The notes under the pieces are model-generated. The model did not search any database. It was not told where the DNA came from and worked only from the letters and a program-made list of their open reading frames with translations. Below, piece by piece: positions 271 through 23,059 of a stretch of DNA of 27,278 nt. Numbering within the stretch: the first letter of the stretch is position 1; every line of letters begins with the position of its first letter. Made by a program: the position numbers and the translations under genes. This DNA comes from a virus. Taxonomy: Duplodnaviria; Caudoviricetes. The stretch lies in the IMG/VR virus record IMGVR_UViG_3300019784_003551, positions 1 through 27,278 of that record. The stretch is one strand, 5' to 3'.

Positions 271-705
271 TTAAGGGTAAGTTATCGTGATTTGCGTGTG
301 CTCTTCCTCGCCTTTCGCGGCTTTGCGCTGGCTCGTTTCAACTTTGCACAGTTCCGGCGAGTCGTCTGGTATGAGGCCAGCGTATCGGCAGCAATCGAGA
401 ACGTATTTTTCACACAGCCCGTCCTCGTCTGCCAGTCTTTTGCGGACGCTTTCAACGCGGACAAGAAATCTTCCATCTGTGCGTCTTTGAACTTCTTTCG
501 CTTCCAATGGTGCATCGCTAGGATCGCGTTCCAGAGCGGCAATCGTCCCGGTATTTTGAGTGTCAGTGTTTGCATAAATTTCAATCTTCGCATCCCAAAC
601 GTCGCGCACCTTCCCGCCTTCCTTGGTCGGCGCGTTCACGTCCACGGCCTCACGATGCACGGGCTTTCGCTCTATCGCTCGGCGGATTTCTGGCGTTAGG
701 TTCAT
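271..705 (-). CDS. RusA-like Holliday junction resolvase, catalytic half
   Basis: RKRLADEDGLCEKYVLDCCRYAGLIPDDS matches the RusA R-x-D-x-D-N...K...D...G...DD pattern; ATGA overlap with the mom-like stop. The first ~75 aa do not look RusA-like. Confidence 0.7.
   Translation of the reverse strand: MNLTPEIRRAIERKPVHREAVDVNAPTKEGGKVRDVWDAKIEIYANTDTQNTGTIAALERDPSDAPLEAKEVQRRTDGRFLVRVESVRKRLADEDGLCEKYVLDCCRYAGLIPDDSPELCKVETSQRKAAKGEEEHTQITITYP
282..575 (-). CDS. Overlapping-frame ORF carrying a RusA-like N-terminal strand, PxxN motif and helix
   Basis: MQTLTLKIPGRLPLWNAILAMHHWKRKKFK resembles RusA-family N-termini (xxIPGxxPSxN...basic helix). Nested within 271..705 in another frame. Confidence 0.5.
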   Translation of the reverse strand: MQTLTLKIPGRLPLWNAILAMHHWKRKKFKDAQMEDFLSALKASAKDWQTRTGCVKNTFSIAADTLASYQTTRRNCAKLKRASAKPRKARKSTRKSR

Positions 706-1433
706 AGGTAGTGTTTTTTGATCGCCATCCGTATCCAGCGATACTTTGCCGCCGTTTGGACGCGCTTTAGTTTCAGTTCATCGCGGCTTTCCGCGACCGT
801 CTTTCCGTTTCTCCGGGCGTGCCGGAAGGCAAAACGGCGGTGACGCTTTTCGCCGTTCTCGTCTTCCAGATGCCACTCGGCATTTGTCATCCCGTGCAGC
901 TTGAAGCCGCTCGCTTTATAGACCGTTCCTTCGTGGCCTTGCTCTGGGTCTGCGAAGGCTATCAGGCAGTCATACGGGTATTCTTTCGCGGCCATCTTCG
1001 ACGTGAGCGCGATGAAGCGGGACAGCGGGTAGTTCAGCGGCGGCTCGGCTCTGCACATCCGTTTGATTTCCAGCACGCGCTCGACGCCGAGGAATTTTGC
1101 CTGATACGGATTCACGCCGATTCCATAGACGATGACGGCATACAGTTCGTTGCTCGCGTAGAGTCCGAAGCAGATGTTTTTGCCAGTCGGGATTCGGTGC
1201 GAGTAGTGCCAGCGCACCACCCATTGCTCCGCCGTTTCATTTCTGATTGGCCGGATTCGGAATTGGAGCGGTGAGGTCGGGTGCGAGCCGCCATCATCCC
1301 CTTGGAACAGGGGAAGCTCTGCGTTTGAGCTATCACCGCATAAATTTGGCCGTGTCCCCGAACCACCGGATGCAGCGAATGAGTGCCGCGCGAGCGGTTC
1401 AGGCAATTCGGACATTGTGGGAGCGGCACTCAT
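702..1433 (-). CDS. Mom-like DNA adenine modification protein (GNAT fold); true start uncertain
   Basis: Motifs IRPI...WHYSH, FGLY...AVIVYG, LEIKRMC, SRFI, LIAFADPEQGHEGTVYKASGF match the Mu Mom family (HY..., ELxR, S/A-F/Y-AD...GHxGxxYxAxxF). Confidence 0.85.
   Translation of the reverse strand: MSAAPTMSELPEPLARHSFAASGGSGTRPNLCGDSSNAELPLFQGDDGGSHPTSPLQFRIRPIRNETAEQWVVRWHYSHRIPTGKNICFGLYASNELYAVIVYGIGVNPYQAKFLGVERVLEIKRMCRAEPPLNYPLSRFIALTSKMAAKEYPYDCLIAFADPEQGHEGTVYKASGFKLHGMTNAEWHLEDENGEKRHRRFAFRHARRNGKTVAESRDELKLKRVQTAAKYRWIRMAIKKHYL
1264..1339 (-). tRNA. Non-canonical tRNA-Gly(UCC)-like element inside the mom-like ORF
   Basis: GCGGTGA-TA-GCTC-AAACGCA-GAGC-T-TCCCC-TGTTCCAA-GGGGA-TGAT-GGCGG-CTCGCAC-CCGACC-TCACCGC-T-CCA: 7-bp acceptor, 4-bp D stem, 5-bp anticodon stem, bulged T stem, U73, encoded CCA; 76 nt. 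Confidence 0.85.
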
Positions 1434-1454
1434 CGCTGATCCGGGACGCTAAGT
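1357..1454 (+). mobile_element. Integron attC-like site (degenerate)
   Basis: R''-like CCCGAAC; left arm CCGGAT[G]CAGCGA[A]TGAGTGCCGC pairs with GCGGCACTCATCGCTGATCCGG leaving two extrahelical bases; R'-like GCTAAGT (one mismatch to GTTRRRY). Confidence 0.65.
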
Positions 1455-1467
1455 GAAGTAAATGCGC

Positions 1468-1770
1468 TCATGCCGCCCTCCAAACGATTGCCTGTTTCCC
1501 GCTTTCGTTCTTTCGTGTCGTGCCCGTGTCGGCTATCTTACCAAGCGCGAGCAATTCAGTCAGGCGAGGTCGGATTGACAAAAGCGACTTGCCAACTTCC
1601 GCCGCGCACTCGTCAGCGGTCAAGTCTTGATGGAAGAGAACATCTAGCACCTTTTGCCGCAACGTGGGCGCTTTCTCTTTCATCGAATCCGCCGCCGCCT
1701 TGGATGTGCCGCCGCGCTTGTAGCCGGGGGCAGCGGGGTATCGGGCAAAGTCTAGTTCTGGATGGTTCAT
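1468..1770 (-). CDS. Winged helix-turn-helix DNA-binding protein
   Basis: TSKAAA...RQKVLDVL...LTADECAAEVGKSLLSIRPRLTEL...GKIADTG...GKQAIVWRA, a common phage wHTH pattern. Confidence 0.8.
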   Translation of the reverse strand: MNHPELDFARYPAAPGYKRGGTSKAAADSMKEKAPTLRQKVLDVLFHQDLTADECAAEVGKSLLSIRPRLTELLALGKIADTGTTRKNESGKQAIVWRAA

Positions 1771-12842: not shown

Positions 12843-12917
12843 TGGTTGCGGGTGCGGGAATTGAACCCGCTGCTTTCAGGTTATGGGCCTGAATTTCTAC
12901 CGATGAATTAACCCGCG
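12843..12917 (-). tRNA. tRNA-Met(CAT), initiator type
   Basis: CGCGGGT-TA-ATTC-ATCGGTA-GAAA-T-TCAGG-CCCATAA-CCTGA-AAGCA-GCGGG-TTCAATT-CCCGC-ACCCGCA-A-CCA; C1:A72 mismatch, A73, encoded CCA. Confidence 0.9.
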
Positions 12918-13010: not shown

Positions 13011-13163
13011 ATGGAACTTCCCATAGACATAGTAACGGCGAACCTGACGGATGCGGAGCTTGATGCTCTTGCGGACGAGGTTCTTTTGCGTGAGCAAGAG
13101 GACAAGTTTCTGGCGTGCCTTGAAGCTGCCTTGGTGCATACCGTGAACACGTATTCGATTTGA
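13011..13163 (+). CDS. Small acidic hypothetical protein
   Basis: MELPIDIVTANLTDAELDALADE..., TGATG-coupled to the next gene. Confidence 0.55.
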   Translation: MELPIDIVTANLTDAELDALADEVLLREQEDKFLACLEAALVHTVNTYSI

Positions 13164-14014
13164 TGGCTACGCTTGCACAAACGCAAAGCCGGGATTGCGT
13201 TGGATTGACGAAGTATGGGGAGAAGCAGTGCGGGGCGATGGTGCGACACGTCAAGCAGCGCGGGCTGCTCAATAGCGATTGTCCTGAGTGCGCTGGCGAT
13301 GGCATTGTGATAGCGGGTGGTGGCAAGTATCTGTCTTGGGCTTGGGTGCTGTGCAAGAGGCTACGGGATTTGGGGTGTCAGTTGCCCGTTCAGGTGTGGT
13401 ATTTAGGGCAAGTGGAGATGCCGGATTCGGCCAAGCCCCGGTTCACTGCGCTGGGCGTGGAGTTGGTGGACGCGCATCTGGTGATGAAACAGCATCCAGT
13501 GCGGCAGATGAGTGGATGGCTGTTAAAGAACTATGCGATAGTTCATTGCCCGTGGCAGAGGGTGCTGTTTTTGGATGCGGATTGCTTTCCCGTGAGCGAC
13601 CCGACACCGTTGCTTGGCGTAGGAAACCTGTTTTTCCATGATGTAAAGCCGTGTCACCCGTCACGTTGGGGATACACATACTGCGGTCTTTTGCCGGGGA
13701 TCGAATGGGAGACGGGCCAATTCGTGGTGGACAAGAAAACGGCTTGGATGGGGCTTAGGTGGACGGGCTGGATGAACGAGAGCGCGGATACGTGGTTCCG
13801 GCTTTTTATGGGGGACAAAGGGACGTTCGAGGCTGGTTTCAGGGTAGCGGAAGTGCCGCTAGTGATGGGGGATTTGCCAACTTGGGGCGGTTACGGTATT
13901 GCACATTCGTATCAGGGGATGCCGGTGTTCGAGCACGCTATGGCGATCAAGAGAGGCGAGCATCCGATGTTTCCGTGGATGACGGAGCTTTTTTGGGAGT
14001 GGGAGAAGGGGTAG
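13163..14014 (+). CDS. GT-A glycosyltransferase, alpha-mannosyltransferase (GT71/MNN2)-like
   Basis: GIVIAGGG, LRDLGCQLPVQVW, KNYAI...VLFLDADCFPVSDP, ETGQFVVDK, GDKGTF motifs in the GT71 order. Confidence 0.8.
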   Translation: MATLAQTQSRDCVGLTKYGEKQCGAMVRHVKQRGLLNSDCPECAGDGIVIAGGGKYLSWAWVLCKRLRDLGCQLPVQVWYLGQVEMPDSAKPRFTALGVELVDAHLVMKQHPVRQMSGWLLKNYAIVHCPWQRVLFLDADCFPVSDPTPLLGVGNLFFHDVKPCHPSRWGYTYCGLLPGIEWETGQFVVDKKTAWMGLRWTGWMNESADTWFRLFMGDKGTFEAGFRVAEVPLVMGDLPTWGGYGIAHSYQGMPVFEHAMAIKRGEHPMFPWMTELFWEWEKG

Positions 14015-18328: not shown

Positions 18329-19128
18329 AAAACATCTGGACGCACAACAAATTCCATCTTGGCGATAGCATGATCTCGCTGCACTTGCTTCGTGCGCTGG
18401 CTAAGCGGAACGAAGGAATCGTGTTAAACTTTTTCACCAACGCCTGCAATATCCCGCAGCTTGCGGCGATGGTTGAAGATGTCGCCAACATCCAGCTACA
18501 CGATTTCGAGTCTGCGCTTTGGAAGGGGCATCGGGCCGAATCATGCGATATGTGGAAAAACCACGCGGACTTTTGGGTGAAGTCTGCGAATCGCTGGAAT
18601 TGGAGCGCGTTTCACTTGGAGCACGCGGCATGGACAACGCATCGCCTTGGACTTGGTGAATCTCCATTTACTATTCGTGAGCATTTACTATTCGACTATC
18701 CCGCGCTGGAAACCGCTGCGATTAGTGATGAGAAATACGCCTTCCTTTTGGTAAATTCAGAACCGCACAGTGGGCAGTTTGCGCCGATGGCAAAGCATGG
18801 CAGCGGCTATCTGAACAGCTTCATCCGGCAACTCGCCAAGGATCACAGCGTCATCACGACTGAGAAAGTGGACGACCTGCCATGCACGCGGGACTGCGGC
18901 TACTTGCTGACACAGATCGGCGCGCTTTCCACTCGCTGCGCGCATCACATCATGATCGCAACGGGGCCGATGTGGCCGACACTGAACACGCACAACCATC
19001 ATCGCGGAAATTCCTGCAAGCGGATTGTGCTTTTGGACACGGAGGAAAGAATCAGGATGCCGTTTATCGAACAGTGCGCGAGTGAACATCATCTGTTTGA
19101 AATTGCAGGAAGAGAGGGATGGCTATGA
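18325..19128 (+). CDS. Putative GT-B glycosyltransferase (GT9-like)
   Basis: N-terminal FHLGD motif, late IGALS...IATGP segment, position in the glycan cluster. Confidence 0.5.
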   Translation: MKNIWTHNKFHLGDSMISLHLLRALAKRNEGIVLNFFTNACNIPQLAAMVEDVANIQLHDFESALWKGHRAESCDMWKNHADFWVKSANRWNWSAFHLEHAAWTTHRLGLGESPFTIREHLLFDYPALETAAISDEKYAFLLVNSEPHSGQFAPMAKHGSGYLNSFIRQLAKDHSVITTEKVDDLPCTRDCGYLLTQIGALSTRCAHHIMIATGPMWPTLNTHNHHRGNSCKRIVLLDTEERIRMPFIEQCASEHHLFEIAGREGWL

Positions 19129-19655
19129 CCTACAAAAAAGCACTCATCGCCGCAATGACGCAGTTCAACGCCGATCCGCTGGCTCGCATCGTTGGCTATG
19201 GCTTGCGCGACGGCAAAGGCGGCAACGGAACGCTCAAGATGTTCTCGAATGAAAAGACTGTTGAGGTTACTGTTGCAGAGAACTTGATGATGGGCATCGG
19301 CATGGGACTGGCAATGGCTGGCTTGCGCCCGCTGGTGTTCTTGGAAAGAATGGATTTCATCGGCAACTGCTTCGATGCGCTGGTCAACCACGTTGACAAG
19401 GCCAAGCAGATTAGCCGTGGCGAGTGGAATCCATGCGTCATCGTGCGCGTGGTTGTCGGCAACAAAACGAAGCCGCTGTTCACGGGGCCAACCCACGTTC
19501 AGGATATGTCAGAAGCCTTTCGTAAGATTCTCAGGATGCCAGTGTATCGCGTGACTACGCCGGGCGAAGTTGAGGCCGCATATCACGTCGCCATGCACGA
19601 TCAGCGCGAGGGAATCGGAAGCTCGATGGTGGTCGAGAGCAAAGACCTACTCTAA
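19119..19655 (+). CDS. Transketolase/PDH E1-beta-like pyrimidine-binding domain protein
   Basis: VAENLMMGIGMGLAMAGLRP...RMDF...LVNH...GPTHVQD; lacks the E1-beta C-terminal domain. Confidence 0.85.
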   Translation: MAMTYKKALIAAMTQFNADPLARIVGYGLRDGKGGNGTLKMFSNEKTVEVTVAENLMMGIGMGLAMAGLRPLVFLERMDFIGNCFDALVNHVDKAKQISRGEWNPCVIVRVVVGNKTKPLFTGPTHVQDMSEAFRKILRMPVYRVTTPGEVEAAYHVAMHDQREGIGSSMVVESKDLL

Positions 19656-19658
19656 AAT

Positions 19659-20702
19659 ATGCACAAAGCCGCAATCCTAACACAAATCAACGCCCCGCTG
19701 GAAATATGGGAATTGGAGCACTGCGCTACGTCTTTCGAGAAAACGTGCGGGCCGGGACAGGTGCGCGTTTCCATGAATCTCAGCGGCATCTGCGGGGCGC
19801 AACTCATGGAGATTTCAGGCACAAAGAATCCAGAGGCACCAGTGCCGCGTCTCATAGGGCACGAAGGCAGCGGTATCGTGCGCGAAGTGGGCGCGGGAGT
19901 CAGCGTGCAGATGCTTGGCAAGAAAGTCGTCTGCCACTGGCGGAAGGGAGACGGCGCGGAAGCCTTCATGCCAGCGCGATACGACACCAAAGACGGAAAC
20001 ACAGTTGGCGGCGGTCACATCACGACACTCACGGAATCCGCCGTAATCAGCCGGAATCGTGTTACCGAGGTTGATGACGATGTTCCTGACGAACTATGCG
20101 CCCTACTCGGTTGCGGACTCAGCACGGCCCTTGGCACGATTGAGCAGGAAGCCAAGTTGAAGTTTGGCGAGAGCATCCTGATTATTGGATGCGGCGGGGT
20201 GGGGACGAATCTCATTCAGGCCGCAAAACTAGCGTGTGCTTATCCGATCATGGCGTGTGATGTGAATGATGACAAGCGGGAGGCGGCAATGAAAAGCGGA
20301 GCCACGCGATATGTTAATATAAACAAAAGTTCAGTGCATCTTAATCTAAAGTATGATGTGATAGTTGATACCACGGGAAACATCGAGGCGATAGAGACTG
20401 GCATACGCAGACTTGCTGGCGGTGGCAGGTTTATCATGGTAGGGCAACCAAAGCCGGATGAGTCGTTCAGGGTGCTATCCGCACTCGATATGTTTTGTGG
20501 CGAGGGCAAGACAATCATCGCCACGCAGGGCGGCGGCTTCCGTCCGCATCTGGATATTCCGCGCTACGTGAACCTGTGGCGCGCTGGCAGGCTCGATTTG
20601 AAAAGCATCGTCTCGCACACAATCGGCTTGGCAGAAATTAACGATGGCATTGACCTTGTGCGAAAGGGACTGGCCGGAAGGGTAATGGTAAAAATGAAAT
20701 GA
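19659..20702 (+). CDS. Zn-dependent medium-chain dehydrogenase/reductase
   Basis: SGICGAQ, GHEGSGIV, LGCGLSTA, GCGGVG Rossmann motif. Confidence 0.92.
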   Translation: MHKAAILTQINAPLEIWELEHCATSFEKTCGPGQVRVSMNLSGICGAQLMEISGTKNPEAPVPRLIGHEGSGIVREVGAGVSVQMLGKKVVCHWRKGDGAEAFMPARYDTKDGNTVGGGHITTLTESAVISRNRVTEVDDDVPDELCALLGCGLSTALGTIEQEAKLKFGESILIIGCGGVGTNLIQAAKLACAYPIMACDVNDDKREAAMKSGATRYVNINKSSVHLNLKYDVIVDTTGNIEAIETGIRRLAGGGRFIMVGQPKPDESFRVLSALDMFCGEGKTIIATQGGGFRPHLDIPRYVNLWRAGRLDLKSIVSHTIGLAEINDGIDLVRKGLAGRVMVKMK

Positions 20703-20953
20703 AACGCTATTATTACAAACTCAGGATTGCAAAATACATCAGGGCATACGGGTGCATAAGATGCTCGGCGGACATTTCAAAAATGTTCACAGAAGCACAA
20801 CACTTGATAAGCCGGGTATTCGACAATCTGAATGGAATGAGGGGAGTATTCAGCGACATGATTCCGGGCACGTTTCCCGAAAACTCTGGATTTTGTTCTC
20901 GAATTACAACCGTTTCAGGAACACTGGCAGATCGCGGCATTGATTTGACATGA
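20699..20953 (+). CDS. Hypothetical protein
   Basis: 84 aa, ATGA-coupled at both ends. Confidence 0.5.
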   Translation: MKRYYYKLRIAKYIRAYGCIRCSADISKMFTEAQHLISRVFDNLNGMRGVFSDMIPGTFPENSGFCSRITTVSGTLADRGIDLT

Positions 20954-21585
20954 ATCTTCACACGAAAGAATCCCTGATCGCCTTCGAGCTTCGCATGAAG
21001 AAATTATGGGAAGATGGCGAACTGCCGTCTCTCTTGCATTTCAGCGGCGGAAACGAGGATCAGCTAATCGAGATTTTCCAGCGCATCCAGCCAGAGGATT
21101 ACATCTTCACAAGTCACCGTTCGCATTATCACAATTTACTGAAAGGCATGAGTGAAGGGGAGCTTGAGTCTCACATCCGCGAGGATCGTTCGATGTTCGT
21201 GTTCAGCAAGAAACTACGCATCTACCAGAGCGCGATTCTCGGCGGTTGCTGTGGCATCGCGGCGGGCGTTGCGAAGGCGATTAAGGACGCGGGAGGCAAG
21301 GAGCGTGTTTGGTGCTTCCTCGGTGATGGCGCATACGAAAATGGGCATCTATTCGAGGCCGCGCTTTACGTCACGGGGCACGAACTGCCATGCACCTACA
21401 TTGTGGAGAACAATGACAGACAGGTGGACACGCGCATCATTGATAGGCGCGGGCCGAATCATCTTTCGTGCTCGCTTACCGCTCCGTGCATTGAGGAATA
21501 CCACTATCAGCATGACTGGCCTCACGCCGGAAGCGGCTGTAAGAATCAGATCACTTTCAAACGAACACACTCTTTGACTCCATGA
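20950..21585 (+). CDS. TPP-dependent PDH E1-alpha-like protein
   Basis: HFSGGNE, SHRSHYH, TPP motif GDGA...ENN. Confidence 0.88.
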   Translation: MNLHTKESLIAFELRMKKLWEDGELPSLLHFSGGNEDQLIEIFQRIQPEDYIFTSHRSHYHNLLKGMSEGELESHIREDRSMFVFSKKLRIYQSAILGGCCGIAAGVAKAIKDAGGKERVWCFLGDGAYENGHLFEAALYVTGHELPCTYIVENNDRQVDTRIIDRRGPNHLSCSLTAPCIEEYHYQHDWPHAGSGCKNQITFKRTHSLTP

Positions 21586-22436
21586 AAACACTAATTGGAA
21601 TAGTATCCTATGGGAATCTTGAGTTCCTAGAGCTGGCCTTGCGCGGCATCCAAGAAACACTCACCAAGCAGGCGGATATTCTCGTCGTGATTGCGCGCCC
21701 AGACGATACGCAGATGCAGGCGTTTCTTAACGAGCGCGGTATCCGATACATTCAGAATCACGCGAACATCGGATTTGCTGGCAGCATCAATGACATTTTT
21801 GAAGCGGCATGGGTGAATGGCGATTACGACAACGTGATTATCATGGGCAACGATGTAATCCCGTATCCTCGCGCATTGGACAGCATGATTGAGTGTGCCG
21901 AGACAACCGATTGGGAGTGGATTTGCGCCTCGCAATTTGATTCCAAGGCACTTGTCGAGCGGTATCCAGAGGTTCGCCAATACTTCCAAGGCGACGGGCT
22001 GGTATTTACCGATTTCAGCGCAAGACCGTGGGAACTTCACAAGGACTTTCACGCAGACAACATCGAACCAGATTCACTAAAAGACGTTCGCAATCTCGCG
22101 CTTTTCAAACGTAGCGTGTTTGAAAAAATCGGCTACGCGGATGTGAACTTCTGGCCCAATGGCTATTTCGAGGATAACGATGCTGCGCGAAGGGCGAACA
22201 TTGCAGGAGTAAAGTCATGCGGGCTGAGCCACGCGGCCTACTTTCACTTTTGGAGCCGGACAATTCATCAGGGCGAAGATCGGGGGCACGCAAAGTATTT
22301 CATCCGAAACATGGATTACTACAAACTGAAATGGGGCGGAGCAGTTGGAAGCGAGAGCGCATCGCCCGTTACGTCGCTAAAGATTCCATCGCGTGAAGGC
22401 GAAGAGCAAACGATCAATTATTGGAGACAAAAATGA
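21582..22436 (+). CDS. GT2 family glycosyltransferase
   Basis: IGIVSY, NIGFAGSIN, MGNDV, FEKIGYAD...YFEDND, HFWSRT. Confidence 0.88.
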   Translation: MKTLIGIVSYGNLEFLELALRGIQETLTKQADILVVIARPDDTQMQAFLNERGIRYIQNHANIGFAGSINDIFEAAWVNGDYDNVIIMGNDVIPYPRALDSMIECAETTDWEWICASQFDSKALVERYPEVRQYFQGDGLVFTDFSARPWELHKDFHADNIEPDSLKDVRNLALFKRSVFEKIGYADVNFWPNGYFEDNDAARRANIAGVKSCGLSHAAYFHFWSRTIHQGEDRGHAKYFIRNMDYYKLKWGGAVGSESASPVTSLKIPSREGEEQTINYWRQK

Positions 22437-23059
22437 GCGTTCCTCGCATAATCTCCCAAATCTGGATCGGCAACAATCCCATCCCTGAGCGCGAAGCCGC
22501 TTGGTGCAAAGCGATGGCTGCGATGAATCCGACTTGGGAAACCACGTTGCATGGCAATCGCCTGCTCGAAACTTACGGCCAAGACCCCTACATCCGATAT
22601 ATGCTATCGAAAGGCGAGCGCACCGCCTTCATCACGGATCGCTTACGCGTGCTGCTGCTACAAGAGCACGGTGGCCTCTACGTGGACGCCGACGCGGAGC
22701 CGGTGAATCCCTTCGATTCGCTGCCGATTTGGGACAAGTTTGATTTTGTGGCAGGGATGCGCTCGCCATTCCGCAAGGATGTGGCACTCCATCGCGCCGT
22801 GCCGATTATTGATAACACTTTTATGGCATCCGCTAAGAACGGGCGCATGATCGGCATCATCGCCGCGCTGTGGACGCCGGGACAGGTCACATCATCGAAT
22901 CACGCGATCAACGGGCACAGAACCGGGCTTGCAATTATCGAGAATTGCGATTACACGACCGCATTACTAAACCAGCGTTACATATATTGTGAGCAGAAAT
23001 ATCCTGAGACGTTGATATTCCACGATGCTCATAATCTAGGCAGTTGGTCATCTAAATAG
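22433..23059 (+). CDS. DXD-motif glycosyltransferase (GT32/OCH1-like)
   Basis: VPRIISQIWIG, TDRLRVLLLQEHGGLYVDAD, NTFMAS. Confidence 0.88.
   Translation: MSVPRIISQIWIGNNPIPEREAAWCKAMAAMNPTWETTLHGNRLLETYGQDPYIRYMLSKGERTAFITDRLRVLLLQEHGGLYVDADAEPVNPFDSLPIWDKFDFVAGMRSPFRKDVALHRAVPIIDNTFMASAKNGRMIGIIAALWTPGQVTSSNHAINGHRTGLAIIENCDYTTALLNQRYIYCEQKYPETLIFHDAHNLGSWSSK

Follow-up and report, generated by a model that had tools for sequence, protein, structure and literature searches.

A mom-like gene in a caudoviricete virus record (IMG/VR IMGVR_UViG_3300019784_003551; the window, meaning the whole linear stretch of 27,278 nt that was analysed) carries, inside its own reading frame, a sequence predicted to fold as a deformed glycine tRNA, and this nesting of cloverleaf and mom is shared by over a hundred related genes. 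Across the family the cloverleaf covaries, retains the bases by which glycine tRNAs are recognized and has a bulged T stem, and the mom frame is held open across it by selection. We lean slightly towards a reading in which each transcript gives one product only: either the enzyme, with the codons of the element translated as a disposable tail, or an excised RNA which would serve the enzyme as a private glycine donor.

The cloverleaf within the window mom gene

The window enzyme matches the Pfam Mom family (PF25680) over residues 58-239 (E 2.5e-33; 115.9 bits against a curated cut-off of 27.1) as well as phrog_1384, and its best PDB match, both by sequence and by fold, is the Mom protein of phage Mu (8bv8; fold E 4.7e-11). 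By alignment, six of the seven catalytic residues of Mu Mom are identical, H58/Y59, R111, S124, D149 and Y159 corresponding to H76/Y77, R125, S138, D162 and Y172, and the seventh, R151, which is essential in Mu, is replaced by E164. The clade of the window enzyme is a putative Gly-tRNA-dependent modifier of adenine N6 in double-stranded DNA. AlphaFold2, given an 89-sequence alignment, predicts residues 1-57 to be unstructured or disordered (block pLDDT 50-67), followed by a first strand at residues 58-62 and helix 1 at residues 65-75. Promoter and terminator scans of the window remained at chance level.

Table 1. Features of the mom region of the window
Feature	Position	Strand	Remarks
100-aa gene of unknown function, phrog_1123	1468..1770	-	upstream of mom
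13-codon ORF, MSAFTSLSVPDQR	1430..1471	-	preceded by GGAGG; ATGA junctions at both ends
Imperfect long hairpin, two bulged bases	1366..1444	-	contains ATG 1433, ATG 1415 and TTG 1406
mom-like ORF	702..1433	-	243 aa from ATG 1433; GNAT fold from residue 58
tRNA-Gly-like cloverleaf, 76 nt	1264..1339	-	in frame, mom codons 32-57
Anticodon loop GUUCCA, 6 nt	1303..1308	-	U34-C35-C36 at 1306-1304, the glycine identity bases
T arm, 5-bp stem with bulged A at 1277	1275..1292	-	T loop CUCGCAC, without U54 and A58
U73 discriminator and encoded CCA	1264..1267	-	translated as Leu56-Gln57

The cloverleaf is the minimum-free-energy fold of positions 1339-1264 (z -3.13, one of 200 shuffles being equally good) and scores 80.8 bits with a covariance model that was built with the window copy included. 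It comprises a 7-bp acceptor stem, a D stem of 4 bp that closes a loop of 7 nt, a 6-bp anticodon stem with its 6-nt loop, a 4-nt variable loop and a T arm whose bulged A separates the counterparts of pairs 50-64 and 51-63. The glycine identity set of PMC7826273, as given in the parts of that paper devoted to it, is complete in this copy, with G1-C72, C2-G71, U73, C35, C36 and the CCA end all present. The preliminary description had spoken of a plain tRNA with two extra bases, in the anticodon loop and in a T-stem bulge, that affect both frame and structure. The bulge is there, and the extra base of the anticodon arm yields the 6-nt loop, but this base is offset by the short 7-nt D loop, leaving an ordinary total of 76 nt, and the RNA is better described as structurally altered and probably non-translating. 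Relative to a canonical translating tRNA it departs in the 6-nt loop, the bulged A, the T loop and the D loop (AAACGCA, without GG). Degeneracy in its T and D loops goes beyond what is average in the family, and this may impair or slow processing by RNase P.

Neither ARAGORN nor Rfam called the window element, a snoRNA match of the Rfam type at E 2 being attributable to chance, and a blastn search with it against cultured phages gave no match; the same search with two other elements returned mostly ordinary tRNAs, plus Salinibacter phage B2_17. An alternative fold, with a 7-nt loop and a UUC (Glu) anticodon, was ruled out by pairing counts. Elsewhere in the window, a canonical tRNA-Met(CAT) (12843-12917, minus strand) is called by both ARAGORN and Rfam, and a phage-borne sugar-metabolism cluster (13160-14014 and 19119-23059, plus strand) holds a putative mannosyltransferase, transketolase-like halves, a zinc dehydrogenase, and GT2 and DXD glycosyltransferases.

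As first described, the mom frame (ORF 1433-702) is open through the entire cloverleaf, reading CGDSSNAELPLFQGDDGGSHPTSPLQ and then FRIRPI. The window cloverleaf has a second open frame as well, so that little is proved by this single locus, and the evidence is that of the family. Three in-frame starts lie upstream of the cloverleaf; the preliminary description had correctly placed ATG 1433 and ATG 1415 within a hairpin, and had missed the third, TTG 1406. It had also been right that no in-frame ATG, GTG or TTG occurs between the CCA end and the first strand, the first such codon being GTG 1220, at residue 72 and thus inside the predicted helix at 65-75. ATG 1433 is the likely start. The 13-codon ORF immediately before it, which at its start shares bases with the stop of ORF 1770-1468 and at its stop with ATG 1433, is likely a leader for translational coupling, and a relative (L236) has a similar 13-codon ORF that ends on an ATG at -94. 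A ribosome finishing this leader would open the hairpin and could then restart at ATG 1433. The stretch 1445-1340 folds well (z -3.75, with none of 200 shuffles equally good), and the hairpin within it may, by its resemblance to the attC site of integrons, be attC-like; a repeat search found no second copy of it among the listed repeats. Among 12 close relatives inspected, several have hairpins of their own together with starts at -70 to -94 from G1. As these hairpins are unrelated, and as the usual ATG of the family stands at -7 to -13, the hairpin is a feature of the sub-lineage, outside the system. An out-of-frame mini-ORF, ATG-CGG-TGA, overlaps the element at its 5' end in the window (1342-1334, minus strand) and in several close relatives, and is probably a by-product of the bases that precede G1.

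Association with mom and selection on the open frame

For a family-wide view, 455 Mom-anchored loci were fetched with five alignments. A covariance-model search of these loci gave 272 matches, and 211 distinct elements were kept once duplicates had been removed, along with one weak match and three antisense tRNAs; 86 lie 5' of the enzyme core and 125 are others, two elements (in L211 and L331) being mislabelled owing to tandem mom genes. Elements are present in 54/101, 69/69, 35/69, 61/71 and 6/78 distinct loci of the five sets, frequencies which are biased, since for four of the alignments, seeded from element-bearing loci, the best 80 of 480-597 matches were taken. In L211 each of the tandem mom genes has its own element in frame at its head (1127-1202 and 1860-1935).

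A search independent of the protein, with an RNA-only pattern made of the bulged T arm and the 3' end, found at least 120 viral loci. Among the 80 with full flanks, Pfam Mom scored above its cut-off in 70 and a truncated piece of it was seen in one, while Mom of this type was matched in only 267 of 50,697 cultured-phage records. In GTDB the pattern gave 111 matches, with Mom (by our own profiles) at 56 of the 80 loci with full flanks; Pfam found no Mom on the 83 ORFs of the other 24. The tRNA-Gly-like element is thus tightly associated with mom. The 70 viral Mom loci divide into 40 with the element nested 5' in frame, two with it free at the 5' side, 23 read through at the 3' end and five with a stop before or inside it. 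Which arrangement is found depends on the clade, as the element is 5'-nested in some Mom clades and 3'-nested or free-standing in others. On a tree of Mom proteins (169 of 316) the labels change 18 times, against 75 when shuffled; its deep support is weak and it has no outgroup, and the order of events is not readable from it. The neighbourhoods of these genes offer two further observations. At five loci (L018, L020, L030, L046 and L083) and several of the 3' class, the element and mom often adjoin parB-like and terminase genes, which suggests expression together with the packaging module. Four GTDB loci (L626, L627, L650 and L635; elements ending at 929 on the plus or 901 on the minus strand), from Acidobacteriota and a Moranbacteria genome, have the same bulged RNA with no Mom within 900 nt, beside genes for glycosyltransferase, YdjC and sugar aminotransferase; a different transferase that depends on glycyl-tRNA may be served by these Mom-less elements.

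Of the 86 elements of the 5' class, 83 have no stop in the mom frame, whereas the other two frames are open in 18 and 9. Stops are absent from all 74 aligned copies, where 11.7 would be expected from column shuffles that preserve pairing, and the result withstands collapsing at 80% protein identity (55/58) and at 65% (17/18, versus 2 and 1). The three exceptions are 77-nt copies, in which a start codon in the D loop lies just past the stop. The 5'-nested set from GTDB behaves alike, with 33 of 33 open (12 and 17 in the other frames) and 32 continuous with mom, bearing out the earlier expectation that homologues keep this frame open. The preliminary description had further anticipated a conserved peptide (GGSxPTxxLQ), and a GGSxPT-type peptide does precede the fold in 107 of the 120 homologues listed (of 238 found), but it is a mere by-product of RNA conservation: in seven of the 33 GTDB cases the RNA is read in a different register and the resulting peptide is unrelated, and it is therefore open reading that is selected and not the peptide sequence. 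Element length modulo three was also considered as a test of frame; it is 1 in 80 of 86 5' elements, but 74 of these are simply 76 nt long, other lengths give 6/12 (5') versus 16/70, and GTDB has seven open 77-nt cases. This test, weak and dominated by the 76-nt copies, was set aside.

Start codons lie where translation through the element would need them. An in-frame ATG occurs no more than 33 nt upstream in 55 of 85 5'-class elements (19 and 21 in the other frames) and just 3' of the CCA in one of 85; among the 63 with an upstream ATG, the nearest in-frame one is 7-13 nt before G1 in 44. A start codon falls inside the D loop in 32 of 85. Element-less relatives in the window clade begin at about the position of the CCA (36/40). 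Several in another clade have kept a tRNA-derived N-terminal peptide (MPLFR; L365, L369, L387, L389 and L422) over a decayed cloverleaf, C35 having been lost through synonymous change in L389 and L369; in these it is possible that the tRNA has turned into coding sequence. From frame selection, the element-less starts at the CCA and the kept peptides, it follows that the element segment is very probably translated, and that it is dispensable. Thus the central proposal of the preliminary description, translation of mom through the cloverleaf, is upheld by the open frames, upstream starts, second register and peptide vestiges, and on this comparative evidence is very probably correct.

Read-through at the other end of the gene is less marked. 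In the 3' class, where 52 of 124 elements are forms of 66-70 nt, the mom frame is open in 102 of 124 (68 and 43 in the other frames) and all three registers are used; collapsed at 65%, the counts are 23/34 versus 15 and 15, a weak to modest enrichment. Among 11 cultured-phage mom loci examined, Psychrobacter phage Y8A (L139:1356-1423 and 1428-1496) has two tandem copies of 68-69 nt with a reduced D arm just past the mom stop, a single free copy lies 33 nt beyond the stop in Salinibacter phage B2_17, and Microbacterium phage Antuna has a canonical tRNA-Gly(CCC) convergent to mom; the other eight, Mu included, have no element. The existence of free copies beside mom points to an RNA that acts in trans, with nesting optional and not a requirement. 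Fourteen public sequencing runs were all contigs, with a best share of sampled words of 0.11 and none reaching half; four of them contained relatives or 151-nt pieces, which are silent on RNA ends, strand and expression.

A candidate glycine donor, released or translated

Selection at the RNA level is also apparent. In the 74-sequence alignment 86.9% of cells are paired, compared with 70.7% after shuffling and 40.7-49.8% when the controls are slid, and changes on both sides are seen in 15 of 22 pairs. This excess is understated because the alignment mixes two registers, one with a 7-nt D loop and a 6-nt anticodon loop (mainly 5' class), the other, found mainly in the 3' class, with D and anticodon arms of canonical form. 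Residues 31 and 38 form a Watson-Crick pair in 65 of 74 relatives, giving an anticodon stem of 5-6 bp. G1-C72 is present in 206, C2-G71 in 203, U73 in 199 and an encoded CCA in 176 of the 211 elements, and the 76-nt copies have C35 in 128/128 and C36 in 125/128; as C35 is a third codon position, its invariance is not due to protein selection. A73 replaces U73 in eight of 211, all of the 5' class (L238, L382, L384, L402, L412, L435, L440 and one more), and may reflect hosts with a different type of GlyRS; archaeal hosts, considered as an explanation, are unsupported, and all 111 GTDB matches have U73.

In 197 of 211 elements the T stem carries the bulge with all its pairs intact, and in three it is canonical, a count from a covariance model that favours bulged forms, at loci which were, however, chosen by protein. 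Only 66 of 200 retain TTC in the T loop, and U33 is present in 83 of 128; the anticodon is mostly UCC, with position 34 variable, in loops of 5-6 nt. The element is therefore best seen as a structurally altered tRNA-Gly that is probably non-translating. Two of the three pairs named as determinants of EF-Tu specificity, in the relevant section of PMC3239215, are those that flank the bulge, 50-64 and 51-63, and a bulged A among these contacts would weaken EF-Tu binding, although no measurement of the effect of such a T-stem bulge on EF-Tu was found in the literature searched. The bulged A is thus a candidate EF-Tu antideterminant.

According to the sections of PMC13219725 that deal with its substrates, Mu Mom uses Gly-tRNA-Gly as the source of the glycine that it attaches to adenine N6, can work with each of the three tRNA-Gly isoacceptors of E. 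coli and probably reads the acceptor end of the tRNA. Since Mom uses Gly-tRNA-Gly, the element is likely a dedicated, non-translating glycine donor for it, a conclusion we hold with some assurance; the link to the cosubstrate of Mom made in the preliminary description is supported by this activity and by the retained identity bases. Excision by RNase P and 3' nucleases is the established pathway for tRNAs. A folded cloverleaf would be cut from the mom transcript in this way, be charged with glycine by the host GlyRS, bind EF-Tu and ribosome poorly and so spare Mom competition with translation, and be used by the window Mom as its private donor. If left in place, its codons would be translated as the unstructured N-terminal tail. 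Glycine tRNA that escapes EF-Tu is described as avoiding competition with translation in staphylococcal cell-wall synthesis (PMC7826273, in part). Excision in the 5' class would part the start codon from the enzyme core, destroying that copy of the message, and in the 3' class would leave a non-stop message; either way a transcript would give enzyme or donor, with a dosage-limiting effect. Such a switch per transcript is plausible; expression of Mu mom is reported (PMC3299994) to be harmful to the host and under tight, including translational, control. That the switch was selected for dosage is a more tentative suggestion, on which we remain somewhat sceptical. We are similarly hesitant about the fullest version, in which mom genes would be the precursors of their own cosubstrate, the bulged-A RNA an orthogonal tRNA, and RNase P the setter of a self-limiting ratio of enzyme to donor.

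Several observations weigh against this reading as a whole. Copies stand free beside mom in Y8A and B2_17, and in 7/70 of the viral loci retrieved by the pattern the element stands free or contains a stop. Many Moms, that of Mu among them, lack an element (6/78 loci of one clade have one), and for the Mu enzyme any of the three isoacceptors of the host suffices (PMC13219725, in the parts cited above). The 3'-class enrichment is weak after collapsing, and the window copy itself has degenerate T and D loops and an E164 in place of R151. Some of these would fit rather well with a dedicated donor nested purely for linkage and coupling, with the loss of message having no selected role in dosage. 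Free-standing and tandem copies, the convergent tRNA of Antuna, the modest 3' read-through and the frequent coupling of upstream starts to the preceding gene (near starts overlap an upstream stop in 31/60, versus 6/35 controls) all point in that direction, but nesting occurs at both gene ends and in two reading registers, and an element standing free on the 5' side, with mom having a start of its own, is possible (L019, L034) but rare (2/42). We regard linkage alone as rather unlikely, with perhaps the best claim on our attention among the alternatives.

An operator acting in cis, that is, a tRNA mimic never released from the mRNA, to which Mom or GlyRS would bind and so repress initiation, is less probable again. 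The position of 5'-class start codons, shortly before G1 or within the D loop, would suit such an operator, as folding would occlude initiation, and translational control of Mu mom (PMC3299994, as above) offers a parallel; yet 3'-nested, free-standing and tandem copies would go unexplained, the conserved U73-CCA end matters mainly for a free charged end, and the window start lies 67-94 nt upstream of the element. An ordinary decoding tRNA-Gly, a frameshift suppressor or an integration-site remnant that overlaps mom by chance would suit the mostly UCC anticodon and the clean ARAGORN calls at some loci, but is very improbable given the near-invariant bulge, the variable U33 and position 34, the short loops, the loss of TTC, covariation along the full length, and mom at 70/80 loci despite its rarity among phage records. 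Just as improbable is a start of Mom at the non-canonical ATC 1256 (with ATC 1247 and ACG 1235 the only near-start codons between the CCA and GTG 1220), the RNA being an untranslated leader, for although element-less relatives begin about there and the tail is dispensable, none of the three codons has an SD-like sequence, a start at residue 60 would delete the first two residues of strand 58-62, and the family as a whole, with its selected frame and its excess of upstream ATGs, speaks against it.

Precedents and significance

Both halves of the arrangement have precedents, the embedded tRNA since 2011 (with no function attached) and the either/or model as a proposal for selB and selC. In the passages of McMurdie 2011 (PMC3146451) concerned with it, a 76-bp tRNA-Gly-like 'pseudo-tRNA' with anticodon DCC lies inside the opening 150 bp of a mom homologue in ssrA islands of Dehalococcoides; matched by this description it is almost certainly of the same family, and the 5'-nested copies from our GTDB scan include some in genomes of Dehalococcoidia. 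Those passages cover one genus and one fosmid, treat the element as a primer target, and contain no function, frame analysis, bulge, or 3' or free-standing forms. Mukai 2021 (PMC8124441, in the sections drawn on here) described selC, encoding tRNA-Sec, nested in selB of Alphaproteobacteria, and offered either/or processing as a hypothesis. As with mom, a protein has the whole of the tRNA that it uses within its own ORF, at a frame-preserving length and with remnants elsewhere, but selC, placed at the 3' end of the gene for an elongation factor, gives a translating tRNA, whereas the mom element is probably non-translating, occurs at either gene end and in several frames, and belongs to a DNA-modifying enzyme of phages.

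The closest functional parallel is the staphylococcal tRNA-Gly NP1-3, donors for Fem enzymes, which in the portions of PMC7826273 consulted share with the element a retained glycine identity, a reduced anticodon loop, frequent T-loop TGC for TTC and a partner transferase of GNAT fold, but are stand-alone chromosomal genes with demonstrated weak EF-Tu binding and no described bulge or nesting. Mu Mom itself (Silva 2026, PMC13219725, main text) shares with the window enzyme its fold and most catalytic positions, but draws on host tRNA-Gly, has no element and is under Com control; the words 'tRNA-like', 'overlap' and 'upstream' are absent from that main text. Literature searches outside the subscription journals turned up no link between the embedded RNA and the cosubstrate of Mom, and no description of the bulge, of the 3' class or of free-standing copies.

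The conserved N- and C-terminal 'motifs' of many Moms, such as GGSxPTxxLQ, are translated RNA structure and not protein motifs. If the reading preferred here is true, the orphan observation of 2011 would be explained by the finding of 2026 that Mom consumes Gly-tRNA-Gly, and phages would harbour a widespread class of non-translating tRNAs, in which ARAGORN cleanly calls tRNA-Gly at only 10 of 60 loci. The mom genes would then also provide a small system in which the model of tRNA or protein from one transcript could be tested by synonymous changes.
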